Part shown: one piece after another, positions 7,151-63,000 of the stretch
Numbering within the stretch: position 1 is the stretch's first letter
How the letters are laid out: each line of letters begins with the position of its first letter
Source of the DNA: Podarcis gaigeae
Taxonomy: Eukaryota
Length of the DNA: 64,000 nucleotides
Reading direction: 5' to 3' (one strand)
Assembly (NCBI GenBank): GCA_964106915.2
Contig: OZ066922.1
Program-made: the position numbers and the translations under genes
The notes under the pieces: generated by a model
What the model saw: only the letters and a program-made list of their open reading frames with translations
What the model was told of the DNA's origin: nothing
The model's database searches: none

Positions 7151-7196
<46 letters not shown>
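7151..7196. repeat. (CT)n microsatellite
   Basis: Directly visible. Confidence 0.95.
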
Positions 7197-7201
<5 letters not shown>

Positions 7202-7219
7202 TCAAACAGTAGGGGAATA

Positions 7220-11212: not shown

Positions 11213-11840
11213 TACTGTATCAATCTAAGAAAGTACACTGAGTTAACACAGTTTGCTGGTTTAAGAGAAATAAATGTTGGAGAGTCTTATTCACCATGAT
11301 ACACCATGCTATCTTTTGTTATAGTTTCGGATAGTTTCTGATAAAAAAGGGTTAGGAAACAGTAGTAACCTTCCCCCGTTAACACCCCCCCCCAAAAAAA
11401 ATCAGCAACTGGCTGTCAGTAGTGCAGCCTGTCATTTTTCCACAGGCAAAACACAGACTGTCACAATAAGCAGCATTTATTCATTTCAGACTTGTAGCTT
11501 GAGGCTGGGGAAAGGGAGGTGTCATTTCTGGTAATTGTAGAACACAAATAATAATAGCAGCTTGCAGATCATGGATCGGGGAAACAGTGGGAGTTGTGAG
11601 AGAGGAAGTAAAATGCTTGGGTTCTTACAGCACAACCTAATTTACTGCCTTTGAAATATCTTTTCATTCATAACTGCAAAATGGAATGGTGCGTGCATGC
11701 CTTTTGTGTTGTGAGAAAATAAAAAGAAACATCCAAAAAATATCCACTTATTTCACAACAACCAGTATTACACATTTTGATCAACCTGTAAGTTTACAAA
11801 TGTAGTTTACACCTTAAAGTAGCCCCTTCCAGCTAATTAA

Positions 11841-12220
11841 AGGTAAAGGTACCCCTGACAGTTAAGTCCAATAGTGAACGACTCTGGGGATGCGGCACTC
11901 ATCTCGCATCCCCAGAGTCCCTCCCTCGTTGAGGGAGCTGGCGTTTGTCCGCTTCCACAGACAGTTTTTCCGGATCATGTGGCCAGCATGACTAAGCCGC
12001 TTCTGGCAAAGCCAGAGCAGCGCACAGAAATGCCGTTTACCTTCCCACCGAAGCGGTACCTATTTATCTACTTGCACTGCATGCTTTTGAACTGCTAAGT
12101 TGGCAGGAGCTGGGACCGAACAACGGGAGCTCACCCCGTTGCGGGGCCTCGAACCGCTGACCTTCCGATCGGCAAGTCCAAGTGGCACAGTGGTTTAAAC
12201 CACAGCGCCACTCGTGTCCC
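11841..12220 (-). mobile_element. Sauria SINE, full length
   Basis: (ACCTTT)n tail and GGGAC(A)CGAGTGGCGCTGTGG head on minus strand; TSD TTCCAGCTAATTAA (11827-11840, 12221-12234). Confidence 0.92.
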
Positions 12221-13351
12221 TTCCAGCTAATTAAGCAACATTTAACTGTAATTACAAGAGACTTATAAATTTATGTCCTAATGCTCTGTAACTCAGCAGT
12301 TTGCTAGAATTGATAACCATTAAAAAAAATATCTGTTTCCCATCTCTGCATTTCATAATGGACTATTTTATTTTCAAATAAAACAACACATACTTTGACC
12401 AACAACACTAAGATGAAAATCATGAAAAGCAAAATAATAGTTCAAGCAACAAGACCAAAAATAAGTTTCAGTGACTCAGAGTGGAAAGCAATATAAAAAA
12501 TGCCAACTATTTAACAGTGATGCAAGTATGTCGTTGATCTACACCCACACCCACACCCCAGATTTTATTAACAAATTAGATTTTAATGTTGTACAGACTG
12601 CTGGTACCCTTTCAACGAACATGTGTTAATTAGGCTCCTTTAAGTTAAATAGCCTCATAGAACTGAAGGCTTTATGTTACACAAGCAGGAAAACAACTAC
12701 AGCTCCATGCAACTGGAATCCCAGCACAATCTTATTTCCTATACCAAAGTACAAGGGTCAGTGGTAAAGAGGGCTAAACTCTACTTTTATTTGCTCATCT
12801 AGGTGAAGATTACCCTATGTACTCAAGTACAGAGAAGAATGAAGGCAAAAGAACAATATTGGCTCAGTCCGCATTGCTTTAACATCTTCATTCCCTAAAA
12901 AGTAAACAGAATTTAAAAGTTTGGCCACCGATGTCTGCTACAGATTTCACTACTGAGTTAGCTATTAAATCCATACACCCACTAACAGAGCTTAACAATA
13001 TTTGCATGAATGAGTAATTCAAAATACAAGCTATCCTTCAAATAGCATTTAAAATATGAAGTGCATTTTTTACATAAACCCAGAAAAAATTCCAGAATAC
13101 ATTAATTCTCTAGTGACTTGCAAGCACATATTTTCACTTTGTACTTAGTTTTATAGTTGCCCTGTAAGATGTGTGTGTGTGTGTGGTGGCCGCTGCTTAG
13201 TTTTACAACAACATAAAAAGAAAAAAAGTAATATTCATAAATGCAGAACAGAGTAGAAGAAAATATCCCACCATTAACAGCAGTCAACCAAAAGAGAAGA
13301 CAGAAGGGAGAGAAAGCTGCCCCCTAGAAATGAGTCCCAGTGTCTCCACAG

Positions 13352-13541
13352 CACAGAAGCCAACTCCTAGGAGCTGAGGTCCCTTCAGGGCCCCTAATAA
13401 AATATTTCAGGGGGCCAGGTCCTCCCCCCAAATAGATGAGCATTGCCATTCAAATGGTGTGTGTGCACTGCGTCTTGTGATTATGTGGAGCGGAGCTTAC
13501 CTCTCCCCCCACCCCATATTTTATTCAAGTTGGCACCCCTG
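13352..13541. mobile_element. hAT-type MITE
   Basis: Right TIR AGTTGGCACCCCTG, decayed left TIR CACAGAAGCCAACT, 8-bp TSD CTCCACAG. Confidence 0.7.
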
Positions 13542-16426
13542 CTCCACAGATGGATAAACGTTCTCAGCCAGTTCTGGTTCTACCCCAGGCGAGATGTGCA
13601 AATGTGCAACAGTTTTGTGGGTCTCCCCCAGTGCAGGGTGAGCCTGACGGGATCTCTTAGAGAGGATGGGGCATTTCTTGTAGAGTCAGACAGGTTCCTC
13701 TCATCCATTTGCTCTAGTATCTAACTTTCTTTCTAGGTGAGAGAACATATCCCTGCAAACAATTTGTGGATGGTGAAATTTGGGGCACAATTTTTCTAAT
13801 AAATATCCAAGCAAAGAGGTAATTCTCCAACAGTTTTTTAGGAGTGGAGCAAACTAGCAGAGGCACAGCCCCCCCCCCCCGCTTTTTTGTTTTTTGTTGC
13901 TGCTTTCACAAGTGGCAGGGATTGTGTGCACAATTCAGGTATTCTTTTATATGTACCATAATTCCCTGAATCTTATGGGGGTAGAAAGTGTGGCTGCCCC
14001 TTGCCAAAAGGTAGAGAATAATTAGCAAAGATCCCCCTTTGTTTCAGAGTGGGTAAGAATGTTTCCCCCCTGACACACCTTTTCTTTTGAAAAGAGCTTG
14101 GCTCTTCTTCGTATATCAAAGTTGGAGATAAGCGGAGAAAATATGTTTCCAGGAGAGTCAGACTATGCATTCTTTTCATTTCCCTCATCTACTAAACCAT
14201 CCTTGCTGCCTCACCCAACCTGGTTGCAAGCACACACACAAATACACCCAGTACTGTGAAGAAATCAGTCAGTCCAGGTCAGCTGAAACTTTATGACTGG
14301 ATTCCTTCAGTGGAAGATGAAGCAATCAATCAAAAATAAGTCAAAAGGGGGTGGGAAGAGATGTTCATGGTTCTGTATGCCCTCTGAACTGGCATGGTAG
14401 GCAACTACAAACACCGTCTTTCCAAGAGAGGCTTTCACTTTCAGTTCCTTCTAATATCCTTTCTGCTAAATTAAGAAAGAGGCATTTGAAGTGCTCGTGA
14501 CGCTAATGCCCTCTGTTCAATGACTAGATGCATACAGCTGAAATATGTGCCAGTCTTGTAACAGTATGACAAAACCTTGGCTTGAGACAGGGACATCGTT
14601 ACTTCCTGACAACCTGCCTATAATCGTTCCAAATAACAAGCAGGCACACCAATTACAAAGCAATGATAAGCTTTGCTTGAATTATAACTGAGTGGCAATA
14701 GCTTAAGACAGCTTTCTTCTAAAGAATGAACATGTTGCAAACACAATGCCTACACAGAACAGTTGTGTGCGTGTCACAAATTAACTACATGGCATGCACA
14801 TGTCAGTGGATACTAAATCAACCACAGTATATCACAACCCTGTTGCAGTTATTGCCTGTCACCATTTGTGGAGAAGTATATATAAATAGAATTTGCATTG
14901 TCTAGTAGTTGAAAACTTCCCTACTTGATAAATCTAACATTTTGCTTGTAATAACAGTTTTGACAGTACCTCTGCTCACAGCAAACTGCCACAGTCATTT
15001 GCTTTGCTCCAATGGTGCTTGGCTGTCACAGCCTGTCATGTGGGAAGAAAGCACCAGATCTAACCCCATGTGACAGGGTTTAATCATTCCCATTACTCCT
15101 GTTGGCTGTTTAGGCCACTTTGAAGGATGCAGCATATAGCTCTAACCCACAAAGTGTCCTTGATTTACAAACCAGAAATGCTATGTTATTGTGATGAAGG
15201 CTGGGCAGTCTGACCAAAGTGCAGAAATGCAGTTAGAGAGGCATGTGGGAAAGAAGACTGATTTCTAAATCTGTTTGGTAGGCAATATGTTCAAATGTTT
15301 TATCAAAATCAAATGGCACGGTACTGGTTTTCAAAGGTGCCAACAATTATTTAAATCCTTTGGATTACGGGTAAGAAATATGGAGTCAGAGAGGGGATTC
15401 ATATGACCTGGATGTTCCTGTTTGTTGTCACTTAAAACCTTACTACATGCCATCTTTAAGTGCGGTGTAACTACAGCCTGTACATGATTGATCCCAGTAG
15501 TTCCACTTCTGAATTCTACTTGTTTGTTAAGTCTCATCCAATCTGTAACAGTCCCCAGGTACTAATCCTGGATCTGCAACGATACCTAATACAAATTTTA
15601 AAAACTGAGCTGGAAGTCACTGGAATGCTGAAGACATTGTACAGCAAATCTTTAGACAATTTCTGTGACTGTCTTCATTTCTGGGGTGCAGCCACTTCTT
15701 CCCCCCTGTGCAAGTAATGGAGACAATGATATCTCCATTAACTTGTTTACAAGGAAAGAAGAGGCTGGATCCCCAGAAATGGCTAGGAAAGAAGCCTACA
15801 TGTTCTAGCAAGATCCACTGCATTGATTGGAAAACAAATCAATTGATTGGAAAACAACAAATAATGTGTTTGAGAGAACTAGACATTGGAATTAAATGTA
15901 CCTCTAGAACACTGGTTCATATAAATGAATATTATATTTCTTAACTCACCGAAAAGCTAAACTAACCGCTCTGTTGCTAGTGCTTTGGGGCCTTTCCCTA
16001 CAATTTCTCCTTCTTGTTCTGAAAACAGCTCTAGGGGCCAGAACAAACATCTAAAGGCACATGTCTTTGTGCCACTTCAGACCATCAAAGTCCTCAATGT
16101 AACCATGAATAACAATGTGTAAAAAAATAAGAGTGTTGACAAAGGATGCATTCACAGTAGGGTTTCTCTGTGATCATGTATTCTGTGTATATGACTGCAT
16201 CAGTGCATTAAGGCATTTGACGATATGAACTTTCCTTTTGTAAAATCAGAATGGTCAAGATCAATGTAATAAAAATGTTCAGTGAATAAAGTACCAATAG
16301 GTTTATTAAAAAATGAATCTTATTCTTGCACTTGTCCCTCTGATGTCACATATCTACAGTTTTCTGTTTGATTCCTACGTATGTTCAATGCAAAAAGCAC
16401 TCTAATACTGGAGGGTTTCCCCACTA

Positions 16427-16668
16427 CAGTGGTACTTCAGGTTAAGTACTTAATTCGTTCCAGAGGTCCGTACTTAACCTGAAACTGTTCTTAACCTGAA
16501 GCACCACTTTAGCTAATGGGGCCTCCTGCTGCCGCCACGCCACCAGAGCATGATTTCTGTTCTCATCCTGAAGCAAAGTTCTTAACCCAAGGTACTATTT
16601 CTGGGTTAGTGGAGTCTGTAACCTGAAGCATATGTAACCTGAAGCGTATGTAACCCGAGGTACCACTG
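16427..16668. mobile_element. Tc1/mariner (Tigger-like) MITE, family A
   Basis: TIR CAGTGGTAC...GTACCACTG, TA TSD; same family as 26788 and 52032, opposite orientation. Confidence 0.9.
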
Positions 16669-17149
16669 TATTCTATTCAATTTCAGTTCACCAACTCACC
16701 ATTACCAACTAGGCAACTAGTAAAGAAGCTGAAGATCAAATAATATGAAATATTCTATAGCTAATTGAAATGGAAGAAATTTCAGAATGGATGTAAAGAA
16801 TAATATTTTCCATATGGCACATGGTTGGCACCGGTGACTTAACATCTACAGTGGTCTACTACTGTCAGAGCTGAACTGCCAGAAGGGAACTAAAATTTGT
16901 GCCAGGAAGTCAGAGTTGAGAGACTAGGAGGGGCCAGATGTCAACCTGAGTTGTCAACCAATGATCCTTTGAATGCTTCACTACCCACTCCAAACATTAG
17001 CTCTGGGGGCTGAAAAAAGGTGGATGCTGCACACAGAATTGAGGATTTATTCTAGTTCTATCCCCAGTAGCTTCCGAGAACGACTTAGATTGTTGCCATC
17101 TGTATTGTCAACCTGCAGATACCACAAACATTAAATGGTTAAGTGTGCA

Positions 17150-17420
17150 AACCTACACAAACTTACTTCAACTCAATGGAATTATTTTTCAGCGCTTATG
17201 AATAGGATTGTGCTGCAAGAGGCTCTCCATACAATCTGTGTTATTAACTGCTCTATAACCACGGCAATAATCACTATTTCTGTGGCTTCAATCAGCTCAG
17301 CTCAGCGGCTTTTACCCATGTGGACTGTCCCCAAGCGATGAAAGCAGATTGACCATACAGCTGTCAATGTTTGACTGTCAAGTAAAGCAGTCTGAATAAT
17401 AACTATTTGATTATGCATTG
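17150..17420. promoter_or_regulatory. Candidate conserved non-coding element / enhancer
   Basis: Repeat-free, CpG-retaining block with clustered TALE (CTGTCA) and E-box (CAGCTG) motifs; conservation not verifiable here. Confidence 0.3.
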
Positions 17421-19639
17421 CTATTACATTTAAATATGAAATTTTGACCCAAAACCTTGAAAGGGCAAGGATGTATAAGTTGTACTATGGTTTTCTTTGC
17501 TGTCATGTTTCTGCAAAAGCAGGTTGGCTGTATGAGCTCTGACACTGTGCCAAAGCAGTGTTTCTACTACAATGCACTTTGGTTGCAAGGTTAGAAAAGC
17601 CAGCAATCATGCTGAACACAAAGACAGAGTGTTCCTTCTTTACCCATTGATGGGATGAACCACTTAAAAAGACTTTTGTCTAGATAGCTAAATTATAGTA
17701 ACTGTGACAGATGGTGCCACTTGTTCAGATCAGAATTTGACCACCATGAATTAGTCAGGGGTACAGGAATTGGGTGACAGAGGTGGCAGTGTGAGAATAT
17801 GGGGTGATGTACTACAAGTGCTGAGCTTTTTACGTTGTTTTAATTGCTGGTGCTAGAATATTACCAGTACTCTCATTCATGCATACATGTGACAATTTCT
17901 AGCAATAATTATATGTCTACTTAATGTGATCCTTGTTCATACTGTAGATAAAATGTACTGCTGGGTGGCTGGAGTCAGCAGTTAAAGAATTAAAGGTGCA
18001 TGTCTGATTTCACCCCTTCCTTCCACTGCCTAGGATTTAAAAATCCTTTTCCATTTAGTGTTACTCTTACAAATTCCTAAAAGGACTGCTTCACATTTCT
18101 TTAACTACGCAGCACAACCATATACATAAAAGGAGAAATTTCCTCTTTTCAGGGCAGAGCTACATATAAGCACTTCTTTCATTTGGTAAAGCAATGTCTG
18201 TATCTTTTTGCCTAGCAGAGTAATAACAGAGATAGGATTTTTAATGGATGGAAAAATCAGTCTATTTCATGTCATCTTTACATCTGATCACTCATAAATC
18301 TGATTCTACCTTAAAATGCATTTAAACAGTGGCAAAATTATGGTTTATTTCTCCTAGGTAAAAGACCCAGTTTGGCACACACACAGGCTGGGAGCCTCAA
18401 TGACTCCCCTCTGGAGGCTTCACACAGGGCAAAAACTTGGCTAGCACCCCCCATATAGCTATGGCTCTGATTTAAATATAGATAACATAAATGTAGAAAT
18501 TCATATTTTAAAATCAAAATGTTCATTTCCAAGCACATTTTGTGCTGAGAACTGCGTGGGAACATTCAGCAAGTGCAAAAGCCAGTGGATACTAAATCCT
18601 AATCTACACATTAATCCAGAAGGTGTAGATCAGTCGGTTCATAACAGAATTCCGAAGGATCAAATTAATTCAGCATCCCTAGATTTCCAGCAGAAACAAT
18701 ATTGTGTGAGAGAGGAGTTAAGATGGCTTTTTATTGTGGCTAGTATTGTGCTTCAGATTGAAACCCCAGTGGCTGCACTGCATGGGAAAATGATAATGTG
18801 CCATTCCACACTGTGTGCTTACATTGCAACGACACTTACAAGAAGCTGAAACAATTTGGGAGATACAAGGATTGTGTGGCTGTGTATAGTCATTACAATG
18901 CAGATCTTGCAGACTGAAGGCATAAAAGGATTTGCACTGACCTTCAGAGAGTGTGTTGTATGCAGACCCAGCTTAAGTAACAGCCAGATGCATGTAATTT
19001 ACAGAACAATCCTAACAATACCATTTTCAGGGTGGTGCTCAATTGCATCTCGACCACCATCCATCAGCACAAAGGGTGGCTCCTTTGTGGCAGAGGCTCT
19101 AGCTCCACCCAAATTACCTTTGTCCTCCTGCTAGCCAAGGCCAGCTGAAAACCCCTACATGGGGTATTTGGTGTGGTGCTAGTGGCTTTTGACTTGTTGG
19201 ATCTCTGCATTTCCCAAAGGGCCTAACTCTTGGGCCCCTCAGTTAAACCAGCCTGATATAGGTGTGGTGAAAACAGGAAAAAATGTCCATTCCTGTATCT
19301 TCCAATCTGGCTGGGATAGGTCAGCAGAACTTTGAATGATGCAGAGGATGCCGAGTCCCATGCCTCTACAGCCCCTTTAAAAAAATACTCTGCTATACAC
19401 TACTGGAGGTGGAATGATAGCAGCTGCTGGCATCAGACTTGCCCTCTGATGAGTCACTGTTAAAAAAAAAAAAAGAACTATATGTTGTGCCTCATGCTGA
19501 TTCCTAGTGAAATAATACTCTTTTCTCCTTCAAACCCTGGTAATCATGTTATGAAGCCAATCTTAATTCAAAAGCATGGCACTATGACAGGAAAGAATAT
19601 ATGTGCAATAAATGCATTTATTACGCTAATGCCAAAACA

Positions 19640-20680
19640 GGGAATTGACTTAACATCAGTCAAGAATTTGGATCACGGCAAAAAAATATGAATTTATTTA
19701 AGGCTAATTATGAGAGGATATGGAAAGAAATTAAGAAAGACATGGAAATTTGGAGCAGATTAAATTTGCCATTATGGGGAATAAGCTCTACTATAAAAAT
19801 GAATGTGTTACCCAAAATGTTATTCCTGTTTTAAATGATCCCCATTATAGGGGGACAGGATGCATTAAACATTGGCAGAAGGAGCTATCTAAATTTATCT
19901 GGCAAGGTAAGAAACCCCAAATTAGATATAAACTTCTAATGGATATAAAGGAAAAAGGGGGCTTCGCTTTGCCAAACCTAAAGCTTTATTACGAGGCATC
20001 ATGTTTGTGTTGGTTAAAAGAATTGATGACCCTGAAAAATACGGATATATTGGCTATAGAAGGATGGGATAACAGATTATGGAAGGCACACATATTTGGG
20101 TTACAATAAAGTGAAAGTACATAGGGGGTTCCTAAATCGTATAATTTGGAAATCCTGATACACAGTATGGGGCAGATATAGAAATTTGTTGGAACCAAAG
20201 ACACCTGGGTGGTTGTCACCGCTAGAGGCCTTCTTGATAAAGAAAAGAAATAGAATAAAATTGGGCAACTTATAAAGAAATCCTGTTTGAAGAACATAAT
20301 CATCTTAAATTTTAAAAATTTGAAGAGATAAGACATTGTGTATGGATTGGCTACTACAGTATCATCAACTGAATGATGTGTTTAAACTAGACAGAAAAAT
20401 TGGGTTTGAAAAAGAGATGTCGAAATTGGAAAAAGAATTAATATAAAATAAAATAAAAATTATCAAAAACTTAGATATTATTGTTGGATTGGGAACTAAA
20501 GGATGAAGTTATTAAAGATGTGATGGTTAAATGGGCAAAGGACTTTGGGTATTCAAACTAGATGGAAGATTGGGAAAGATTGTGGCAAAAAGATAAAAAA
20601 TTTATGGCCTGCTATATATTAAAAGAAAAATTTCTGAAAATGCTATATAGGTGGTATATGACCCCCCAGCAAGCTGACAG
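19640..20680 (+). mobile_element. L1 LINE ORF2 fragment (post-RT region), frameshifted
   Basis: IKMNVLPKMLFLF, WQKELSKFIWQGKKPQIRYKLLMDIKEKGGFALPNLKLYYEA and YRWYMTP motifs. Confidence 0.88.
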
Positions 20681-37000: not shown

Positions 37001-37936
37001 TCGGAACCAAGTTACGAATTACACATTAGCAGCAGGTTGCCTTTTCAGCCCTTCCCTTCATGTTTCCTTCTGAACCCACACTCTGAGTTTTGGCTTTGGA
37101 AGCAAGCCAGAAAAACAGAACTAACTTAAACAATAAAATCTCGATGATCTACTGAACTGTAACTGAGATTTGCGACCTGCTTTGAGGCGAATCAAATCCA
37201 GCAACAAAACTCCTTACACACGGCTATCAGCAAGTGCCTGGCAGAATGTCAACACAGTGGTACTAAATATTCTAAATGACTCATGCTGGGAACCATTGGA
37301 CATCATGTGCTGCCATGAAATAATTATAAGAAGTAGATGGATTCATCTCAATGTACTTTTGTCACATGAAAGAAATATGCCTACTAGCCTGATATGTGTC
37401 TTGACCACAGAAATTCCTTGTGTGGTACAATAGATATTGTAAATCCTTTCATACAAAAATAAGGAACATTGAGAGATTTGATAAAGCAATGGTTGCCATT
37501 CAGAAGTATTTGAATACATGAATGAAACATTTTTTGGGGATGATTACTGTCATGCTCTTCTCATTATATCATTTTACTAGGAATTCTCCTTCTCAGTTTT
37601 TTATTGGAGATCACAGTATTCTATTCATTCCTATCTTCCTGAAACTCACTAGCATAGCCTGACACACCTTTAGGAAACATTGCTTTTAATGACATTTAGA
37701 AAGAAATGCCACAGTGTGTTGCACTTTTTCATGCAAGACATTTCCACCCTTGGTACTGTGATGGCTTGCCCTGCTCATACATGATTGACTTGGGGCAGTA
37801 ATGAGCAGTCTGAGCTGAGGCAAAAGTGGAGATGCAGTGGGAGGAGGAACAAAGTGAAGGCATTTGTGCAAATCTCTCTTTATTGCTCACTGGTGAGCAA
37901 ACCGGACATAAAAGTACTTTAAAAGAGCAGGAAGCA

Positions 37937-40052
37937 ACTTCCGGGGTGGCGCCTTCGGCAATGGCTGCCTCCCTCTGAACTGGAGGGATCCGCGAAACGG
38001 GTCGCATCCGCTACGGCGAAGCGGGGACCCCTTAAAAAATCACAGGTGGACAAAGCCTGTGACCATGGGACTCGGTGGGCACCTTTAGCGCCCCCCCAAC
38101 CCGCAAAGGAACCCATTAACGGGCTCCGAAGTGAAGAGGGGGAGGAGGCGCGGTGCTGTGAGTCTACTGCTTTTTCCGTGGAGCGAAGCCGCATTGTCGT
38201 TGCCGGAGAGTGCTGCTTTTTTCCTGGACAATTTGGCATCTAAAGAATCATCCGTGAGTACTTAAAATTCGAACAACTGGATCTTAAATAAGGACTGGCC
38301 AGTAGAGAAGAATTGGACTCAAAATTTATTTCAATTTGGTACTGAAACGGGAAGGTCTATACAGGAAGTCAGCCTTCCATTTCTTTGTAGTCAGAACAAA
38401 GCAAAGACAACGTAAACTAGAGCTCAGAAAATTACCTTTAAAGGATTGACTTTCATCATTTAAAATTGTGGAACCCCCCCTTCGGTGGCAGGAAAAGAAG
38501 GGGGATTCTTTTTGGGACTGTTTAAACCTGCAGAAGTGAGTTTAAAGTAAAGTAACTTTCCACCGTCCTGATCCTGGAGCGGAGTGTCAGGACTGACGTT
38601 TGAAGCTCATTGACCAGAGACAAATGCTATTGACAGATAGTTAAAAGAAAAGTAACATAGGGATTCCATTGTTTCTTTTCGCATTTTAAAGGAACAATAT
38701 TATCTTAAAAAAGAAACTTTGTTGCTATTGTTCTTAAAAGTAAGAAGATTTCCCCCTAGAGGGAGACTGTGAAATTGTAACCAACTTCAGGAGCTTGCAG
38801 CTGTTACAGATTACAATCGTGGGAAAGGACTTGTGACCTTGTAGAACAATGTCTCCAGAAGCGCGGTTGGGCGCTCTCTACAAAATAAATGCCCTGCTGG
38901 ACCAGTTAGGGCAGAAGATGGATATGGTGACTAACGTGGTTAGAAACTTCGAACAGGCAATTGGAAAGTATGCGGAGCCTACCCAGGAACTAAAACAGGA
39001 GTGTGATATGACAGCACAGATGAGAGAAGAGGATATTGCTGAATCCGGGGTGTCAGAAATGGAGGGAGTTATGGCCCTGCAGGATTATGAGCCTTTGGAT
39101 TTGATAAATGAATTTGGAAAAAATCAGATTTGGAAAAATAAAGTTTGGTTTGGTTTGGAAATGGGGGGTTGGATTGACCCTCCCATGCAGGAATATTTGG
39201 ACTCTCTGAGTCTGGAAATGGGCCGTCAGATGTGTGGACTGGTGGGGGCTCTTAATTTTGGAGGGAATCTGAAACAGGTGTTTAAACATTACATGGAGTT
39301 TTGTCCGGATTATGGAAATGGGGCTGATCTGCTGAAAAGGGTCAAAAATATTATTAAGCTGGAGTTCTCACGAGTGAAAGGAAAATATGAAGAAGAATCG
39401 TGGTGGGGACATGGAAGAGGCTTGAGGGCCTCTGACATAAGGGCACCAGGTTAATGCGCTAGGTTAATGGGACAAAAAGGACTGACAAAATCCGGGGCCA
39501 GGAGGAAGGACGCTGGGTGAAGATTGGACTTTTCTATATTCCTTTTTTTTCCCCTTTTGTTATTAAGATTGCTTTAAAAATAATTGATGAATGTTAGAAA
39601 AATGTTGAAATGGAATTATTTGGCTCTAGTAAAAATGTTTTAAAGAATTAGGTTAATGATATGGCTATGAGAAGTTGATAAAAATAAGATTTAAATTTTA
39701 AGTTTTAAGGCCTGCTATAAGATAAGATGAAAATAGATTAAGATAATGTAAGAAAATATAAGGATAAGGGATAATGTAAGGGTAAGGATTTGCTGTATCT
39801 GATTGGGTAAAGAGGAATACAAAAAAGGGAGGCGGAGGAAGTCAAGAAAGAAAGTTAATTAAGTATGAATTTGAAAGCTGGAGTTTTTATTTTCCTTTTT
39901 GTCGGGTGGAATTTTATCTTTCTTGTATTTTGTTTTTCGGACCTGTTTTATGTGTATTTTTGATTATGTTTTCTTTTTCTTTTCTTTTTTTGGTTGTTAT
40001 GTGTTTTTTCTTTTATAAAAGCTTAATAAATATATTTAAAAAATAAATAAAT
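37937..40052 (+). mobile_element. Non-autonomous L1-dependent retroelement (HAL1-like), apparently full length and young
   Basis: TTT/AAAA insertion site, TSD AAAAGAGCAGGAAG, CpG-rich 5' end with ACTTCCGG (ETS) and ATGGCTGCC (YY1-like) motifs, single long sense ORF, T-rich 3' UTR, AATAAA and (AAAT)n tail, no EN/RT. Confidence 0.75.
38849..39454 (+). CDS. 201-aa ORF of the HAL1-like element (N-terminal coiled-coil-like region; possible divergent ORF1p)
   Basis: Uninterrupted ATG-to-TAA ORF, the longest in the window; heptad-like LYKINALLDQLGQKMDMVTNVVRNFEQAI. Confidence 0.55.
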   Translation: MSPEARLGALYKINALLDQLGQKMDMVTNVVRNFEQAIGKYAEPTQELKQECDMTAQMREEDIAESGVSEMEGVMALQDYEPLDLINEFGKNQIWKNKVWFGLEMGGWIDPPMQEYLDSLSLEMGRQMCGLVGALNFGGNLKQVFKHYMEFCPDYGNGADLLKRVKNIIKLEFSRVKGKYEEESWWGHGRGLRASDIRAPG

Positions 40053-40068
40053 AAAAGAGCAGGAAGTA

Positions 40069-41160
40069 GTCCTTTCCTCGCTAAGATGGCAGTGGCCGGG
40101 ACTCTTTACACCTACCCCGAGAACTGGCGGGCATTCAAAGCCCTCATAGCTGCCCAGTACAGTGGCGCCAAGATCAAGGTCCTCTCCACCCCAACACAAT
40201 TCCACTTTGGGCAGACCAACAATTCCTGAAGAAATTCCCAGCTGGGAAGGTTCCAGACTTTGAAGGAGATGATGGATTCTGCATGTTTGAGAGCAATGCC
40301 ATTGCACACTATGTCAGTAATGAGGAGCTGCGAGGACCCACCAAGGAGGCAGCTGCCCAGGTCATCCAGTGGGTGAGTGTTGCGGACAGCTACATTGTCC
40401 CTCCTGCCAGCACGTGGGGTCTTCCCCACACTGGGCATCATGCATTACAACAAACAGACTACAGAGTATGCCAAGGTGCTAATAAAGCAGATTCTTGCCC
40501 TCCTCGGTGCCCATTTGAAGACCAGGACATTCCTGGTGGGGGAATGCACCACACTGGCTGACATCACGATTGTCTGCACACTTATCTGGCTTTATAAGCA
40601 GGTTTTGGAGCCATCCTTCCACCAGCCGTACAAAAACGTCAGCCACTGGTTTGTGACCTGCATAAATCAGCCTCAGTTCAAGGCTGTCTTGGGAGAGGTG
40701 AAACTGTGCGAGAAGATGGCACAGTTTGATGCCAAGAAGTTTGCTGAGAACTTGGCACCAACAATGCCAGGTGCATCTCTGGCATCTGGGTCTTCCATGG
40801 GCAGGAGCTAACCTTTCTGCTGAGCCCTGACTGGCAGGTGGATTACGAATCCTACACTTGGCAGAAGCTGGACATGGAGAGCAAGGAGAGCAAGATGATG
40901 GTGAAGGAGTATTTCCTGTGGGAGGGTGAGTTTAAACACTATGGCAAAGCCTTCAACCAGGGAAAGATCTTCAAGTGATGCCGCCAGAGAGCTGGCGAGG
41001 GGGGCAGGACTGTTCCCAAAACCATGGACCTAAGGAAGGGCGTTGTAGTCTCCAAAGGAGTGGTGAGAGCTCCTGCCACCATTAGAAACAACTCAGCAGG
41101 GAGAGATGTCGTGACATTCAAAGATGTGAATTTAAAAACCTGAGTGTGCTAGTAAAAAAA
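40069..41160 (+). pseudogene. EEF1G: Processed pseudogene of elongation factor 1-gamma
   Basis: 5' TOP CCTTTCC, ATG at 40086 [27 protein letters not shown]...[10 protein letters not shown] joined to ...[14 protein letters not shown]...[11 protein letters not shown] (40978); intronless, poly(A), 16-bp TSD AAAAGAGCAGGAAGTA; frameshifts near 40221 and 40418. Confidence 0.97.
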
Positions 41161-43819
41161 AAAAGAGCAGGAAGTATCTTCTGACTTGCTCTGGCCTATC
41201 AAGGTCACTTCCATAGGTGGTGAGATTTGTCCCCTGAATTTCTGTCCTTGGTCTGAACTAGACAGCACAGTCCCTCCTATATATCCCTATGGGAAAATCC
41301 TGGCAACTAGCCTTGGGCATAAATGTACATCTTTGCCCTGCTCTTTTGACACTTGAGAGGTATATTTCAGAACCCACCCTATTCTTGTGATTGTAAATTG
41401 CTTTGAACAGTTTTTAATATTCTATTTTGAAACTGCTGTTACGTGCCCTGTGACCTTACAGTGAAAGGTGGGTAAGAGATTGAATTAATAATTATAATGA
41501 TAATAATATTGCTTTATGATGTCTGAGATGTTAAAGCTCATTCACATAACTAATTGGGTGCTTGAAGAATTACCATGTTGCACTTAAAATCCATCTGATA
41601 ATCAAATATAAAGAGCTCTCACTGTAATACAATGAGTGGTAACTAAGTCATAGAGTAGGTTCATTTATTTCAATGGGTCTACTCTGAGTATATCTAACAT
41701 TGGTTACTGTTGAATCACTATCCATGTATCTGGGGGGAAATGCTGAAAATCTGAAATACAACAAACATATCCTATTTCTAAACAAGACACTAATGGCTTC
41801 TATAGACTTGACAGCAACATACACAGAGAATGAGAGAAAATATAGTTAGCTGGCTTGTGTACAGGTGAAAATTATGCTGCATATTACATGTGGAAATGTC
41901 TTATGGACAACAATTCTGGGATAAACAAAGACAGCTCCTGAATTTATCAGTACTGAAACTACTTTGTATATGATTCTTTGGCAATCAAGAGCACCCACAT
42001 GGTGGCTGGAAATCATTAATCAGGCAACTGAAGCTCAGTGTTTTGTGCTTGTCAGACAACAACCGCTGCTGACTCTAATGAACAAAGAAAGAGGATGCTC
42101 ACTTTAAAATAAGGATGCACCTGTATGTGATAACTTCAGCTTCAGCATTTTGCTGTCCCAGACTTCCCAATTATCCTTTCCATTTGTCACACATTCCTCA
42201 CCTATCCCACTTTTATATTGTAACTTAATTTGTTTTGGTTGTGCAGACATTCTAACTCCTGATTAGAAAAAGAAAGGCAAAATAATAACTGTGGAACAAT
42301 ATTGCCTTACTTGCATGATTAAGAAAAAAATAGATTTTATGTAGTTAACTCTATAGAGTCCAGTTCAGTGTCAAGTCTGAGTGGTCTTTCCTCATCCTTC
42401 CACTCCTTCCATTACTTGTCATATCCAGTGCAAAGTTCCCAGCTTGAATTAAGCCATAGTTCCCTGTTGTGACTGTTTCTCCCATTGCCACATGTCAAAC
42501 TTCACCTGACAACAAGGCTAGTGCTACAATGAGACAAAGGAGTAGCAAATTGGTGCCCTCCTTAAGCCCAGATCTCATTATCACTGCTGGGAAAGTAAAC
42601 TAGGAAAAAGGAGATCACTGTGGGGAAGCTATCCCTTCCGGGAAGAGTTGAAGTTAGTGAACCTGTTGCTAGTAAGGAACTCTGTACCTGGGCCTCTAGA
42701 AACAATGCTTGTCTCAGAAGTATTTCCAAGCTATGAAGATGCTCTTTCAAGAGGAGCACAACTATCATCCACTGAAAAGGACATGTCCTTTTCAGTATAT
42801 GCAATGTTCTAGGAAAAGATTCATGGATTGCACACCTCACAAGTCATCTCTGCAAATTCAGAATGAATATGGGTGTTACTTGGGCCAGGACTCTTTCCTA
42901 TATAACATTCATATTAACCTCAAAAAGAAAAAAAAAAACCAACCCTGCTTTACGCAGACATTAAGAAATACAGAACTATGGAAATATAAAAATAGGGGAA
43001 CGACTAAGAAATTGAAGGAAGGTCACGTGTGTGCTTTAAACAAGGAACAAAGTGTTAGATTCCAAGCATAAGAAGCCAGTTACAAACACATATCTCATCA
43101 TAGGCTACTATCCAGTGAGACTTAACGTTTTCCAATTTCTAACTTCAACACTTTCATTAAACTAGTGCCAAATACCAGAGAAGGTTGGTGCCCCTCCCTT
43201 TTTACCCAGACATAGCAATGGTAACCGTGGAGTCCAGTTTGAGAGGGCTGGCAGGAAGCACAGTGAGCAGAAAAATGGATAGTGCAAAGGGTAGATACCC
43301 TGCAGCTGTGTACCTCACCTCTATACATGGTTTTGCTTGTCTATCCCATGGCAACTCATTTGTCTGAGTGTGGCATGAAAAAAGCTGTTGACAACTGTTG
43401 TGAAATGGCCTATCCAAGGCACAGATCAGGGTACAGAGCACAAAGGAAGCAAATTACCACTCAGTAGGCAGGTTCCCGCACATAACCTGGCTGCTGGCCA
43501 AGTCTCCTTTTATTAGTATAAGGGTCAGGTTTATTTCAGATGTACAGTGAGGCATCTAGTAGGAAAAAAATAGCCTTTAAGATGTGGGCTGCTGGCTCAA
43601 GCAGAAAGGGATACAATGCAGGTGCCATAAACTCATAAACTTTTTTATTTCAGACGATGAACAATACAGATAGGAATAAGAAGAATAAGGGATACTGGTA
43701 AAAATGTTAAGGAAGTACATTAATGAATACTTACATAATATACATCAATATAAATCTACAAGGAAATTATTTCACAAATTATAAGGAAAAGCCTTGGAAA
43801 TCTCAGAATCAAGTAGAGG

Positions 43820-47049: not shown

Positions 47050-47612
47050 ACACCCTTTTTGTTTGTCTGCAGATGCAGCAAAACTACAATCAAGCCCGGA
47101 CTCTGCCACTGATAGAAATATAACATTCGATCTTCATCCACAGCTTTCTATGCCAAACTACAACTTTTTCAAGACTGTTATATAAGGTAGCTGTTCTGAA
47201 ATCACAATAATCCATTTTGATTTTTCTCATACTCACTGTTAAAATGATTTACTAATAAAATTGTTATTTACTGAAGTGTGCCTTGGCATCTTTTAAGTGG
47301 TAAGAACATTGATATGTGAATTTGAACAGTTTGTTATCAATGGGTAACTAACATTTTATGGTTCTTTACAGGAATGTAACTCAATGAACTATCTATATTT
47401 TTCATAGCCTAATTTGAAAGAACGTGCAAAAAGGGACTGTGCAATCATTACACAGTAATAGTTGAAATTCCTCTTCTCTAAACAATATATACCAACATTA
47501 TGACAAATCTTTTATTTTCTCTTTTAAGGACATGTCAGAATCAATAGGGTTTCTTTGGGGGGGGTGGATTTACAAGCTCAGCGGTAAACTTGACAGGGCA
47601 AGTTCAACATTA

Positions 47613-47975
47613 AAGGTAAAGGTAAAGGTACCCCTGCCCGTACGGGCCAGTCTTGACAGACTCTGGGGTTGTGCGCCCATCTCACTCAAGAGGCCAGGGG
47701 CCAGCGCTGTCCGGAGACACTTCCAGGTCACGTGGCCAGTGTGACATCGCTGCTCTGGCGAGCCAGAGCCACACACGGAAACGCCGTTTACCTTCCCGCT
47801 GGTAAGCGGTCCCTATTTATCTACTTGCACCCGGAGGTGCTTTCGAACTGCTAGGTTGGCAGGCGCTGGGACCGAGCAGCGGGAGCGCACCCCGCCGCAG
47901 GGATTCGAACCGCGACCTTTTGATCAGCAAGTCCTAGGCACTGAGGCTTTAACCCACAGCGCCACCTGCGTCCCT
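47613..47975 (-). mobile_element. Sauria SINE, young subfamily
   Basis: (ACCTTT)n tail, CpG-rich body, TSD AAGTTCAACATTA. Confidence 0.93.
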
Positions 47976-49285
47976 AAGTTCAACATTATTAACCCACAAA
48001 CCATTGCCTATTTCCTGAAGATAGCTCTGAAAACAGAAAGCTGAACAATTTATCCCCTCCCCTATCACCTGTGGTGAATGAGCACCTGAATCCTTCACTG
48101 TGTTGTACAAGTCAAACTTTTGCTGTCCACAATACATACTCCATGTAGAAAGAACATAGCTTTAATCAAAATGGCACCTGGTGTTCATGGTGAATTATTC
48201 AGAAAATTAATTTGTCATGAGCCTTGTTCACCATGAAGTGGAAGATCATAGGGAGAGCAGTTATGTGGAGCAGTCTCAATTATTGCAGCATAATTAATAG
48301 GGGTTTTTTGTTTTTTCCCCCCAAGCTTCACCAAACCTCCTGATTGCCATATCTGAAGATTTAAATTCATTTCTAGAGTGTCCTTTCAGTTTCTACACCT
48401 ATGCATGGAAATTCTTTTTGATCAGATAGATAAAAGGCAAACAGGTATCAGTCTTTAAATCTTTTAAGCTATTGAAACAGAGCATGCATAGTTTTTACAG
48501 TTGGAGAAGTCTGAATCTTCTCAATTTGGCACCTCAGTTCTGAATCAGAGACTACCACAGCTCTGAGTCATGTCTGGGGATCATATAGCTGTGATCACTG
48601 TTGCAAATTAGCAATGTGACCAGAAAATATGTATTCTGAGGCTACTTCTTTTCATGTCGCTTTCACACTATTTCCTTCTCTGGCTTCTGTAACAAACTAT
48701 CTGGAACAGATTAAGTAGGGACACCCACTAGTTTTGATCACTGGGCATCAAAACTTACAGCTGTTTCTCACATAAATTAATATTTATCTTCAAGGAATTC
48801 CCCTCTGGTTAAAAACTGGCCTTTTCTCATAAAGTTTTGAAGAGGAAGGAATATTGCACTGTTTCCCCAATGCTTATGAAATGTATATTTAACCCAGGTA
48901 ATGAGTGTCAATCCAAACAAAAAGAGAGATCTACAATTTGCAAATCATTCATATTGTAATAGAAAAAATAAGTAAAAACCACATTCTACATTCCACTTGG
49001 CTTCACTTGTAAAGATACTTCACTGACGTCTGTTCCACTGAAGTGAAAGATGCTTGCATCTGCCAAGAACTTGGAGCAGTGGGCTGCCCCTTGCCAATAT
49101 TATGCATCAGAAAAGTTCATTCTGACATGGTTGATTGCTATTTTAAAATAAATCAGTTATTAGCTAGTGATCTACTTTTGGGGGAAAGAGCCCCAAAGCC
49201 TGGCATAATTGGGTCCATTCCAAGATTCTGACTAATCCTATTCAACTGCAACACATGAGTTAAGAGGTGTTCCCACTTCCCTGTA

Positions 49286-57147: not shown

Positions 57148-59640
57148 AGGGTGGTCAAGATTTATTCTAAATGACATCTATTAAATCTACTGGGGTTATC
57201 ACTGCTAGGCCCAAAGTAAGGCAGAGATAATAGGAGTGATCTTCTAAGGCAGGGGTAGCCAGTGTGGTTCCATCCATGATCACTGGCCATGCACGTAGTA
57301 TAAAATCATAAGGGCACCATACTGGTTACTCATTCTCTAAGTGACAAAATGCCATCACAGTCATTGTGGTGTTAAGATGTTAGCTAAGTTAAATGTTCCT
57401 TATCTGTCCCTTGAAGTTATACTAAAGTTGTGGCCCACTGTAAAATTTATTTACCTTCTAGTGTTTTCATCCCTCGGTGTGGGGGCAGTTTGGTACTGCA
57501 GAGTGAAACAGCCCATTTGATTAATAAAGAAAAGGCTATTGCATATAACTGAAATGCACTGCAGTTGCCTTGACTGTCACACAATCTCAGTGTAAAACCT
57601 GTTCCTGTCCAAAAAAACAAGTGCTCAACTATGCATAAATGCTGATAACTTTGCACACAAACCTGCGCGCTAGAATCACTCAGTGTGCTCCGAAGGTATG
57701 ATACAGTAAGATACCTTACAATGGAATAATTATAAGAAAGCTGTTGCCTGCATAAATTCCTATTTACTTAGAAGTCAGCAGGCAACCTCCAAAATTCAAA
57801 TGTACACATCCCTGAACACATAATGTGTGGTGAGGGATCAGAATCAAATCAAAGCTCTAAGACTCAGTATCAAGAATAGCTAACATGCTGGTATGCTCTC
57901 TGAGTCTGTTTATCCACCAAAGTTAGGAAGAACACGTGTGAATAATCCAACACCCCCAAGGGAACATAATAGCTTTTGTTGGGGGGGGGGTGGAGTTTTA
58001 CGTGGAATTATATCAGCTGCTGAGAAGGATATTTTTGTTATCATTCTAATGCTTATACAATCTGGCTTTACATATTTTACAGTTGCTTTTCTGCAAAGCA
58101 GCAAATGAATAAAATATACATGATTATTACAAGGAAGGCTTCCTAAATCACCATAGGCCTACAAGAATGTTAAGAGCAAAATGGAATATAGATGTTCAGT
58201 TCTTTTATTTACAGTGCTTTAATTAGAGCATTTCTTGTACTTGGTACAGTAGTATAGCCATTTTTGGTGTAATAGCAGTGGTGAGATCTTAGACTAATAG
58301 ACTCTAGCCACTGCCCAGAATGGGAATACATAATTTATTTCACAAAGGTGGTTGGAGATCTTCTAATTTATGAGGGGGGTGAAGCAAATCCACAAGGGAG
58401 TAACTAATGGATGTCAATAAAGAATAGAAATAAATAATATATCCAGGTTGACCATAAACCAATACAGTATTAGCTTTATACAGTAGTTAAATATGTAAGT
58501 TTCGTTTTAGATATTCTTCTTACCCTAAATCTCTAATGAGCTCCATTCCCCATTTGTTTCCCCATTCAGCCTCATAAAATGTAAAGTATTTGCACCAAAC
58601 ACTCCTTCTATCAGAGTGTTTTGAATATTTGCCTTATTATTTGCCTTATTATTATACTGCAGCTTCTTAAAAGGTTCATAGCTGAAGGAAAGGCCCTGAT
58701 TCTACTTTTCATAAACAGTTTCACGTCTGGGATATAAACTTTAAACCAAGCCATGATGGTAGATGTTATCATGTAGTATCTCTGTGTATGCAAGTATGAA
58801 ATGGTTAAGCTGCCATGACGACCAAATATATGGCTAAAGATGTGAACAGTAGTGGCCTGTGGGGGGTGGGGTGTCACCTCCTGGCACTGGTATTGTTGCA
58901 GCTTACTTGCATAGGGCTTGGGAGAGGCAGTGTAGCTATGAAGTCAGGGCTATGCAGGCATACTGGGGGAGCCAATCTGTGCAGACTTGACCTCATCTCA
59001 TCTCAGCCTCACCCTGCCCCAGTTCTGTTCAGGTAAGCTGCAGTGGTGTTGCTCTTGGAAGGTTAGCTCTGCAACTCTGCCCCACCATTCAAGCCACTAC
59101 TAGATGGGGTAGAAATGAATGGATGATGGAAAGTAAAAGGGAGGACTCTCTCTTCATCTATTAAGTGCCTTGGAAACAACAACTGGAAAACCAGTTTGGA
59201 AGAGATATATTGTGAGCTTCCTGGACACATCTGGTTGGCCACTGTGGGAAACTGGACGTCATGGACCTTTGCTATGATCCAGAGGGATTCTTAGTATGTT
59301 CTTATAGTGGTGGGTGAGCTTGTGAGGGCTTGTCTGAAACACCCACTTGTAATATTTAACAAAAAATATACATTTGCCAAATAGGATATGAGATGGAGAG
59401 ATAGTATTGTATACTATATACTTAGTATCACGAGAACATGTTAATTACCAATACTCTCCTTTAGATGGGAACTTGGCACAGGTAATAGAAGAATTGTGAC
59501 CAAATTCCCATCTAAAAGAGAACATAATTCTGGTAGCCTGACTAGTATGCAGTGCATAAAATTCAAACAGGACACTACAGAACAGAAGTTGCCTCTTCAG
59601 CTTTTGTAGCTGGAGTCAGTCAGGCTATTACGTATAATAG

Positions 59641-60003
59641 GTAAAGGTAAAGGTACCCCTGCCCGTACGGGCCAGTCTTGACAGACTCTGGGGTTGTGCG
59701 CCCATCTCACTTAAGAGGCCAGGGGCCAGCGCTGTCCGGAGACACTTCCGGGTCACGTGGCCAGCGTGACATCGCTGCTCTGGCGAGCCAGAGCCGCACA
59801 CGGAAACGCCGTTTACCTTCCCACTGGTAAGCGGTCCCTATTTATCTACTTGCACTCGGAGGTGCTTTCGAACTGCTAGGTTGGCAGGCGCTGGGACCGA
59901 GCAGCGGGAGCGCACCCCGCCGCAGGGATTCGAACCGCCGACCTTTCGATCGGCAAGTCCTAGGTGCTGAGGCTTTAACCCACAGCGCCACCTGCGTCCC
60001 CAC
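59641..60003 (-). mobile_element. Sauria SINE, young subfamily
   Basis: About 97% identical to the 47613 copy; TSD ATTACGTATAATAG. Confidence 0.93.
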
Positions 60004-63000
60004 ATTACGTATAATAGGGTTCCTTTATTTATCATACAAGGATGTGGCAGCACTTGGTTAGGCACAAAGGCAGAGCTGCAGTGTTTAGATACATTATCTA
60101 TCAGATACTGCCACCCTCCCATCCCCTACTCCAGCTAGAAAGAAACACACAGTAAGCTTAGAAATACAGTTATATTTAGATCCCATGTCAGATACAAAGT
60201 ATTATCATAGAGTTACTATGGAATGCTTCTCATATTGGAATAGTATGTGACTTTCTCTCAATACAAATTCTGTTTGAAAAACTGCAAAACATCTTTTTTT
60301 TGTTATTGTTTACATCCTCCACAAAAATTTGCAAAGCACATTCTTCATACAATATTTATCCAAAGTAAACTTAAACTACTTGAAAACAAATTTCTGAGTG
60401 CAAATGCAACTGTTTTATAAGATGCACTTTGTGCTGCCTTATAGCAGTGATGCTATTTACCGTTATCATAAGAACTGATAGATTTCAATATCAAGCAATT
60501 TATATAGGATGCAACCTTACTAGGCAGGTAACACTACTTGCCCTTGGCTATTATTTAGCCTGACCACAGGGCTTTCTGGAAACAGCAAAAGCTTTATAAG
60601 TGTCAGCTCATGGCTAAATCAATGTTTATGCATGATGTACCTTTGAATAGCAAACACTTGCTGCCTGCAAGCTAAACAATGTTTTTATCTGTTTGCCTAT
60701 TTCTGGCCCTTCAACCACAGCCCAGGGTGTTGCAAATCGCATTTAGTAACAATTATCAGCTGGCATTTCATGAACAGGAAAGTAGTGTGATTAATGAAAA
60801 GTGACACACCAAGATTACTTTGCTCTGCCAGTCTTCTTGGTGAATGGGCAACTCTGCTGAACCAAATCATGACCTTTGTTACCTTCAGTGGGGTCAGTGT
60901 GAATGCTAAGTGTTTAGAAGATTAGCTACTACAAATGTTCCAATATTATTTAATGAAGCTTCTACTAATGAACTGCAGGTAGCCAATTAAATATAATGAT
61001 ACAGTTTTCACCTCTCCAGTAAAGGTTGTGTGAAAAACCAAAACGATTACATTTTATTGTAAAAATGTATTTTAAAAAAGCTACCCTAGACCTCTGCTGC
61101 CATAGGTTTTCACCCACCTTCAAAATCTGCCCAAACTTCTCATACATCATTCTTGACTATCTTAAAAACAACAACTTTGTTTCCAATTCACATTTGATTT
61201 CTTGCTCTGCAGCTGTAGCAGTTTCATACATTTTCATTCTAGATCAATGCCATAGCTTGCAGTTAAAGCAGCTACTGATCTTATTACCCACCATGAAGTT
61301 TTTAAGTAACTTTATTGTACCCGTAGTAGCGACAGATTGCTTGGCACAGAGTTGAGAGAGAATGTGGCATAAAACAAAAGGGAGTACGTGGGCAGAATAG
61401 ACACATCTTATAAAATGAATGATTTCATCTGGAAGTGTTCTGGGAACTCCCCCTCTCCTTCTTGTCCTTAAGAGGCCAGAAGAGTAAGCAAGTGAAACTG
61501 AGAGAGAGAGAGGATTGTAGGCAGTTTTGGCTCATGAAGAGCTTGTATATTGTAGATTTCAATACTAGGTATTATGCAAGCCATGAGCATGCTGTATCAT
61601 ACTGAATCACATATTATTCTATGTGATGTTATAGTCCAGTGGATTTGGTATACAGACAACAGGGTCTGCCAGTGGAGAGAGTAGTGTCTGTATGATATAT
61701 GGTTTATTTACACACATATAAAACCTGAGCATCAGCACCTCATAGCCCCAGCCTCGGATTTCAGGAGAAATCAGCTATGGCTCATTCTCTGCTTTTTCCA
61801 GCCTGCAACCATTTTTTCTCTAGGTCACATCACATACACTTTTTACTTTAAACTCTAGCATTGTATTTCTAACTATTCCCACCCATTTGTCCTCTGGCAC
61901 AAAGCCCCCTCTCCTTGCTTTCTTAATGGTCCATCACATTTTCTTTGTTTTCTTAATGGCTCATCACCCCAGGTGATTGCCCCTTCATGAAACTAGCCTG
62001 GCCTATATTTTAACACTTGCTGATTCGAGGAGTTCAGGGTCTGGCACCCAGTTTAACACTCCAAGCCTTGATTGAATTCTAACACTTACTGGATCTAGGA
62101 ATTATAGGTGTCTGGAACCCCCAAACTCATAACAGGCATGTTTCTGCTCAGACTTTGAGCCTGAATGGGTTGGATCAGTATACTCTACAGTACATAAGTC
62201 AGGTTAAAAAGCATTTGGGTTAACAGTTGTTGCACTGGACAGGTGTCAGCTAATATATTGTCCAAAAACATGACACACATATACACACAAAGGTTTTGCT
62301 TTTGAAGAGCAGGGTATGCCCAGTCATTTGTGTGGTTGGCATCCTGAGCTACAGGACTAGGCAAGCAAGTGGGCAATCCTCTGACTGGGTTGGGTTTCCT
62401 TAATCTGTTCATGCTGGCACAATCATCTCTGCATCCTTGGTGATGATGGCTTAGTTGATAGGGTTAGCATTCTGCCCCTTGACAATCTAATCAGCCCTTA
62501 TTAAATAACTGGATTGGTGCCTTCTACCCTGCTAGGCCCCTCTCCAGAATCCAATTCCTTTATTCCACATTCTCTTCTCATTCCTTCTCCCACTCTGTCC
62601 CACCAATACATCTCTGCAGGGTTCGTAACAATGAGGAGAAAGAGAAAGGGTGGGTTGGGAGGGCCTGAGTGGAATTCCAGCTAAACCAAAGCCCAGTAGG
62701 AAGAAGGTGCTGATGAGGCTGGTAAGTCACAGGGTAAGGCCTTAAACTATACCTAACTGATGTCCCAACAAGGAACTGCTGGATTGTATATGGGCAGCGG
62801 GGGTAGAGTGTGATGTAATTCCATCTCCCTAATAAATGACTGAATAGAAAAATCTAATGGTTAAAGCTATTTGTGTGAAGGAAGAGAAGTGCCAGGGGCA
62901 CAGACACAGGGCTTTTGATGTACTCCTGACCATGGAACTCCAACAACAAGTATTAGCATCTGTTGCATTATATGGAAATGGTTGTATCTAACATATCACT

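Follow-up and report, generated by a model that had tools for sequence, protein, structure and literature searches.

Likely re-use of one L1 cut site by an EEF1G retrocopy and a younger HAL1 element in the lizard Podarcis gaigeae

Introduction

How do two different retroposed sequences come to lie between three copies of one target repeat, and did they arrive together or in succession? The question is raised by a locus of the lizard Podarcis gaigeae, found in a stretch of 64,000 nucleotides of contig OZ066922.1 (assembly GCA_964106915.2; this whole 64-kb stretch is referred to below as the window), in which a target repeat, a 2.1-kb HAL1 element, a second target repeat, a processed EEF1G pseudogene and a third target repeat follow one another in one orientation. 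A first-pass annotation, made from the sequence alone, had read the locus as the same nick used twice, with the EEF1G copy inserted first and the element later placed in its 5' target-site duplication (TSD). Since either insertion order yields the same final sequence, structure cannot order the inserts and outside evidence is needed. On the evidence of alleles in relatives and of sequence divergence, we consider it very probable that the EEF1G retrocopy came first and that HAL1 followed in its 5' duplication, likely through two separate L1 target-primed reverse transcriptions at the same TT/AAAA site.

Results

Seven of the 23 listed runs were compared, namely X2 (organism A, from a second study), X4 (organism B), X5 (organism C) and X7, X9, X11 and X17 (organisms E-H, from four studies). 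A retrocopy-only allele was present in all four of the latter, each time in one contig running from the left flank through the repeat to the EEF1G 5' end; these contigs follow the window to 37934 (37933 in X17) and then continue with the last two repeat bases and EEF1G, for 63-98 nt past the point of divergence. In X2, X4 and X5, contigs instead pass from the left flank to the element, entering its 5' end as far as 37964, 37964 and 37975, respectively, and the passage from the retrocopy 3' end to the right flank is bridged by contigs in X2, X4, X5 and X7. A contig of X7 also spans the junction of a 397-nt deletion within the retrocopy, so that this deletion was already there in an organism without the element. 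Neither an element-only nor an empty allele was found among the seven runs. The first-pass annotation had looked to empty, EEF1G-only and element-only alleles to settle the order, and it is the EEF1G-only state that the four more distant runs carry.

The two inserts are also of unequal age. CpG decay has affected 33 of the 52 parent CpGs in the retrocopy, compared with 9 of the 53 source CpGs in the element (p 1e-6), and with 6/26 in the element body outside the 5' island (p 0.0015). Non-CpG positions give 30 changes in 979 (3.1%) for the retrocopy and 12 private changes in 1908 (0.63%; 0.33-1.1%) for the element; under stricter CpG masking, and with clustered changes collapsed, the figures are 18/974 (1.8%) and 11/1908 (p 0.002). 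The divergence gap is thus about 3-5-fold, and change in the parent gene does not explain it, because all 28 amino-acid differences between retrocopy and parent are derived in the retrocopy, as judged against nine outgroup EEF1G proteins. Divergence of each part from its source had also been put forward in the earlier annotation as a means of dating them, and by this measure the retrocopy is the older. The 0.63% of the element falls between the half flank distances of organisms B and C (0.4-0.45%) and those of E, G and H (0.8-1.0%). Since the retrocopy-only alleles and the sequence clocks agree, EEF1G is taken to have inserted before the element, which entered the 5' duplication of the retrocopy.

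The target repeat, AAAAGAGCAGGAAGYA, occurs three times, always on the plus strand, with starts at 37921, 40053 and 41161, and no additional match was found in the 64-kb window with up to two mismatches allowed; even at two mismatches the chance mean is 0.20, and three matches were reached in 1 of 100 shuffles. Both these positions and the TTT/AAAA site at 37918-37924 are as first annotated. The accompanying description, three copies of the same TSD, holds for the three matches and fails for the single duplication that it implies, as identity across all three copies is limited to 14 nt. After these 14 nt the first copy reads CA-ACTTCC, and so does the start of L041/L161, a sister copy, just past its own duplication, most other copies of the element beginning with G-rich bases instead. 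Because so close a sister opens in this way, the CA that ends the first repeat probably belongs to the element. The simplest reading is that of two nested duplications, one of 16 nt for the retrocopy and one of probably 14 nt for the element; less likely, the first repeat is also 16 nt long and has undergone one T-to-C change.

By its intron loss, its tail, duplication and cut site, and its disabled coding sequence, in which changes have gathered free of protein constraint, the downstream insert is an L1-mediated processed EEF1G pseudogene. Positions 40070-41154 match one intron-bearing EEF1G gene (G000:C29:16067233-16082319, minus strand), whose ten exons encode a 432-aa EEF1G; all ten, spread over 15 kb, are joined without introns in 1085 nt, which bears out the name of EEF1G retrocopy given to it at first. 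Processed pseudogenes made by L1 are recognized by absent introns, a poly(A) remnant, a target duplication, a TT/AAAA site and an extra 5' G. The EEF1G copy is the same in kind, with a stretch of A from 41154 to 41164, repeats of 16 nt at 40053 and 41161 and a flank, TTT/AAAA, joined directly in relatives; it starts with the pyrimidine run 5' of the ATG, preceded by one G (40069) that is not in the parent and was presumably copied from the mRNA cap. The later internal loss of 397 nt is its own: it follows 40751, starts inside exon 7, ends inside exon 9 and shows no microhomology. Besides 66 substitutions in 1083 aligned nt, the retrocopy has 1-nt insertions at 40416 and 41131 and a 10-nt deletion after 40222 that leads to a stop at 40227, and the domains found in it by Pfam are GST_N and GST_C. 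Being frameshifted, with a stop after 47 codons, it cannot make EEF1G. Several squamate proteins stand among its best-scoring homologues, in keeping with a host that is a lizard or close kin.

Two further observations concern this copy. At 40477-40484, a cluster of five or six substitutions within eight bases, probably a single multi-base event, has given rise to an AATAAA at 40481. P0086, a Podarcis lilfordi protein that bears the name EEF1G, shares seven derived residues with the retrocopy, has many further changes and retains the middle part that is deleted here. From its sequence, P0086 probably represents this retrocopy in its state prior to the 397-nt deletion; it is probably a retrocopy that was annotated as the gene.

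The upstream insert (37935-40052) is a member of a dispersed family of about 2.1 kb with its own A-rich tail, whose four nearest copies differ from it by 3.5-4.4%. Family copies open with a few variable bases, then ACTTCCGGGGTGGCGCC, and an exact flanking repeat of 10-21 nt was found at 22 of 34 other 5'-intact matches, with a spacing mostly of 1.9-2.2 kb (a few of the short calls may be spurious). The first ~320 nt of the element are 71-76% like the 5' ends of full-length L1s with two open reading frames (ORFs) in the same genome, and over the final ~260 nt it resembles their 3' ends at 88%, the similarity being confined to the ends; the shared 3' end bears only indirectly on a putative retrotransposition in trans by L1 ORF2p. 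No ORF2 was found, there being no ORF longer than 205 aa within the 2.1 kb. Between 37935 and 38270 there are 24 CpG (observed/expected 0.88, GC 57%), compared with an observed/expected of 0.2 for the window, in agreement with the CpG-rich element first described upstream of the retrocopy; this 5' end, in which 3/27 CpG are decayed, is likely the internal promoter of the element.

A single ORF of 201 aa (38849-39454) is open in the window copy. When a profile of 13 family ORFs was aligned by hhalign with one of four L1 ORF1s of this genome, which sit upstream of ORF2 in full-length L1s, the probability was 97.1 (E 5e-11, 194 columns), and the N- and C-terminal halves matched separately at 87.5% and 85.8%; three reversed and 30 block-shuffled controls reached at most 1.85%. 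The term HAL1-like used at first is well founded in this respect, the profile match of 97.1% standing against controls below 2%. The comparison L1 ORF1 profile itself matches human ORF1p (2ldy) weakly (E 0.006), and a more distant HAL1 subfamily alone scores 1.4% against the ORF1 profile, being linked only via the subfamily of the window (93.9%). Searches with the element ORF gave only a sub-threshold LAM_C match in Pfam, no match to L1 ORF1 in pairwise BLASTP, no meaningful match in a profile search of the PDB, a best score of 0.82, which is not informative, in the ESM Atlas, and one relative, without an assigned name, in a protein database. The AlphaFold model is weak (mean pLDDT 40.1, pTM 0.24) and too low in quality for comparison with the ORF1p fold (coiled coil, RRM and CTD) and its trimer.

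In the passage of PMC5753468 on mammalian HAL1s, a HAL1 is a non-autonomous L1 derivative encoding only ORF1p. Because the only ORF encoded here is of the ORF1p type, the upstream insert would fall under this definition, and on sequence grounds we class it as a HAL1, with an ORF1p homologue, no ORF2, and mobilization as a unit with its own duplications and A-rich tails. Likeness to known HAL1s lies in the one ORF homologous to L1 ORF1p, the lack of ORF2, the L1-like ends, the A-rich tail and the variable target duplications. Compared with the full ORF1s aligned here (344-389 aa), the ORF of the window family, at ~200 aa, is shorter by ~60 N-terminal residues and ~55 residues of the C-terminal half, and it is too diverged from L1 ORF1 for Pfam or pairwise BLAST.

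Some features of the family were observed in passing. There are at least two subfamilies (window 38849-39454, L165, L169, L171, L172, L176, L181, L183, L186, L191, L192 and L194), whose ORFs of ~200 aa are only 22-23% identical, with length and both ends kept. The ratio pN/pS of the window ORF against other copies was below 1 in 13/13 comparisons (0.34-0.96, not CpG-corrected), which may hint at selection on the mini-ORF1p. Among the best 40 matches to the element 5' end, 15 lie on G000:C32 (29.5 Mb, ~2% of the genome), for which a repeat-dense sex chromosome is one guess; four of these share identical flanks and are for that reason segmental duplicates. A local segmental triplication is seen at G000:C8:104.4-104.7 Mb, where three element copies (L051-L053) have the same flanks. 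At 4 of 34 element 5' ends (L177, L185, L188 and L193) internal L1 sequence adjoins directly upstream, which places these copies in or beside older L1 fragments. The coordinates of the features at the locus are collected in Table 1.

Table 1. Features of the stacked retroposon locus, in positions of the window
Positions	Strand	Feature	Basis
37918..37924	+	L1 endonuclease-type site TTT/AAAA, the original nick, retained 5' of an insertion	Sequence; consensus TT/AAAA as given in a passage of PMC3783187
37921..37934	+	Target duplication of the element, 5' copy, probably 14 nt (AAAAGAGCAGGAAG)	In relatives lacking the element, agreement ends at 37934 (at 37933 in one) and the retrocopy junction follows
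37935..40052	+	Full-length HAL1, ~2.1 kb, A-rich tail, younger insert	Dispersed copies with own duplications; L1-like ends
37935..38270	+	CpG-rich 5' end of the element, likely internal promoter (predicted)	CpG content
38849..39454	+	Open 201-codon ORF, shortened and diverged L1 ORF1p homologue	hhalign profile match
40025..40030	+	Element polyadenylation signal AATAAA	Additional AATAAA in tail at 40042 and 40050
40053..40068	+	Middle repeat, original 5' duplication of the retrocopy (16 nt); its first 14 nt double as the element's 3' duplication	Repeat search, relatives
40069..40069	+	Extra G absent from the parent gene, likely cap-derived	Parent has T here
40070..41154	+	Processed EEF1G pseudogene, 5'-complete, older insert	Alignment to parent exons
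41155..41160	+	Remnant of the retrocopy poly(A) tail, merging into A4 of the 3' repeat	Sequence
41161..41176	+	16-nt target duplication of the retrocopy, 3' copy	Contigs cross the junction in 4/4 runs

Discussion

The ORF2p of L1 nicks the lower strand at TT/AAAA and primes on a poly(A) tail. What is observed is that there are two inserts, that they differ in age and which of them came first; the nicking by ORF2p and the poly(A) priming at this locus we infer from L1 biology. Judging from the hallmarks of the retrocopy, L1 ORF2p would first have nicked TTT/AAAA and used the poly(A) of a full-length EEF1G mRNA for priming, leaving a 16-nt duplication. The cut site would have survived this insertion unchanged, because the upstream duplication keeps its flank. 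The retrocopy then decayed, and its 397-nt deletion is found in an organism that has no element. In a third step, whose place in the order is given by the alleles, the intact TT/AAAA in the 5' duplication would have been cut again and HAL1 RNA copied in, producing a second duplication, probably of 14 nt, and leaving three repeats, with the new element ahead of the old and both in one orientation. The earlier proposal of one nick used twice, with EEF1G first and the element in its 5' TSD, thus finds support in the retrocopy-only alleles and the unequal divergence.

The re-use of an L1 cut site is a mechanism already in print. A passage in PMC3783187, citing El-Sawy and Deininger 2005, describes a cleavage site that persists 5' of an older insertion, where a younger Alu inserts. 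The tandem Alus of that passage resemble the present locus in the site kept at the 5' end of the older insert and in the younger retroposon added in the same orientation, whereas the lizard locus pairs an mRNA retrocopy with a 2.1-kb HAL1 and has its one-insert intermediate present in relatives. A stack of retrocopy and HAL1, or a case with three TSDs, was not found in the literature covered, which is incomplete, most subscription papers lying outside it. The value of the locus is that of a cleanly ordered natural example, in which retrocopy-only and retrocopy-plus-element states are both found in living relatives, two clocks agree and the duplication lengths probably differ. It illustrates that three flanking repeats need not mean one template-jumping event, and it provides a nested pair of presence/absence markers that separates organisms A-C from E-H. 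For repeat annotators, a lizard family of HAL1 whose ORF1p is much shortened and escapes standard domain searches may outweigh the stack itself.

Whether the second insertion was directed to this site is a separate matter. With TT/AAAA at a density of ~2.1 per kb, or ~3 million sites, and assuming 200-1000 retrocopies and 2,000-20,000 later insertions, 0.1-6 stacks headed by a retrocopy are expected by chance per genome. Chance suffices to explain the re-use, which likely came about as a random hit at a good consensus site. The same order of events could also reflect a true hot spot or a preference of HAL1 for old insertion junctions, which we hold to be unlikely. In its favor, the two nicks coincide here to the base, and single sites in NF1, APC, F9 and BTK have each been used twice independently, as set out in part of PMC3219598; those sites resemble ours in that one site received two independent L1-mediated insertions, there on separate alleles of different people, here on one chromosome and successively in time. 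The survey of other copies suggested in the first-pass annotation speaks against it, as a third repeat was present in 0 of 22 other element copies with a callable duplication, in a scan that reached ~3.5 kb upstream and ~4.3 kb downstream, left out six 5'-truncated loci and recovered the third repeat of the window itself. One-mismatch matches to the 10-12-nt core occurred in 5 of the 22, none of them exact, and the window also gave one such match by chance. Further against a hot spot, new human Alus were not enriched at the heads of old Alus after correction for nick sites (6/961, in the part of PMC3783187 that treats this), and the chance arithmetic permits a few such loci per genome. Re-use of the cut site is thus a known process and not a habit of this HAL1 family.

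The alternative named in the first-pass annotation was consecutive priming in a single event, in which EEF1G mRNA would have been copied, the reaction would have jumped to the target overhang and HAL1 RNA would have been primed, organisms E-H later losing the element by exact recombination between short repeats. The shared orientation and nick fit such an event, as does the first repeat if taken for a 16-nt copy in which one T became C, yet the two parts have diverged unequally, by ~3-5-fold, the retrocopy-only alleles would demand a precise loss of the element in four organisms, and the CA start of the sister copy favors two duplication lengths; we regard the single event as very improbable. 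Insertion of the element first, with EEF1G later at the junction of the element tail and its 3' duplication, would give the same final sequence, the tail junction T/AAAA is near-consensus, and insertion at the tails of old elements is common for Alu (20/961, in a passage of PMC3783187). This order deserves almost no credence, as it is refuted by the EEF1G-only allele of the four distant runs unless the element was precisely lost, no element-only allele was seen in the seven runs, and the retrocopy is the more diverged part. An assembly artefact merging two alternative alleles, one per insert, would take advantage of a middle junction that is not independently covered and is hardly credible, since in X2, and likewise in X4 and X5, one unbroken contig leads through the left repeat to the element and another leads from the retrocopy through the right repeat, at points where a sample with two alleles would be expected to break. 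Single-event priming, element-first order and assembly merge were accordingly rejected on the alleles of relatives, the clocks and the unbroken contigs at the outer junctions.

Several points weigh against the account of two successive insertions by chance re-use. Both outer junctions were seen in independent data and the junction between element and retrocopy was not, because the read comparison skipped the simple-repeat tail of the element. The evidence consists of assembled contigs rather than reads; past the element junction these contigs extend 30 nt in both X2 and X4 and 41 nt in X5, so that only X5 satisfies the 31-nt bridging rule, and the alleles of organisms A-H were compared without a species tree. 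The flank of organism F, which has no element, differs at only 3/375 sites (a half-distance of 0.4%, with a wide interval), and the age bracket of the element is loose for this reason. The contrast in CpG decay weakens at amino-acid-changing sites (11/45 compared with 9/106, p 0.016, and with 6/52 for the element body, p 0.11), and the untranslated parts of the retrocopy have 0/166 non-CpG changes. The chance estimate depends on the assumed insertion counts. Finally, that the compound locus is inert, its most likely state, is something we infer.

The first-pass annotation had also seen in the CpG-rich 5' end a route to chimeric transcripts or 3' transduction. No transduced copy was found: a search of the genome with the retrocopy gave eight matches, only itself and the parent exons, and one with the retrocopy end plus its 3' flank gave two, only itself and the parent. 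With neither the retrocopy nor its 3' flank present in a second copy, and no element plus downstream sequence at a second locus, 3' transduction and a chimeric retroposon were rejected. The element could be transcribed, as its 5' CpG island is little decayed and its ORF is open. Quite unlikely, from sequence features, is a live HAL1 copy that reads through its own polyadenylation signal into the dead EEF1G and yields a chimeric RNA that could be mobilized again as a composite retroposon; in that case the precise re-use of a target duplication would have captured a promoter, and the driver would be a lizard HAL1 family keeping a mini-ORF1p of ~200 aa under selection. Only if read-through transcription is true would the locus be biologically important.

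Additional features of the window

Among the remaining 32 ORFs of 95 aa or longer in the window, Pfam revealed no host gene. At window position 37888, two extra bases (AG) are present in 6 of the 7 compared runs, including the second individual of organism A, and the window has either a private 2-nt loss or an assembly slip at this point. Over a segment of ~35 nt (41656-41690), depth rises thousands-fold and loose ends are numerous in each of the runs X2, X4, X5 and X7; the segment is part of a very high-copy short repeat. Three further CpG-rich islands, at 11801-12300, 47501-48100 and 59501-60200, are candidates for either young repeats or promoters.

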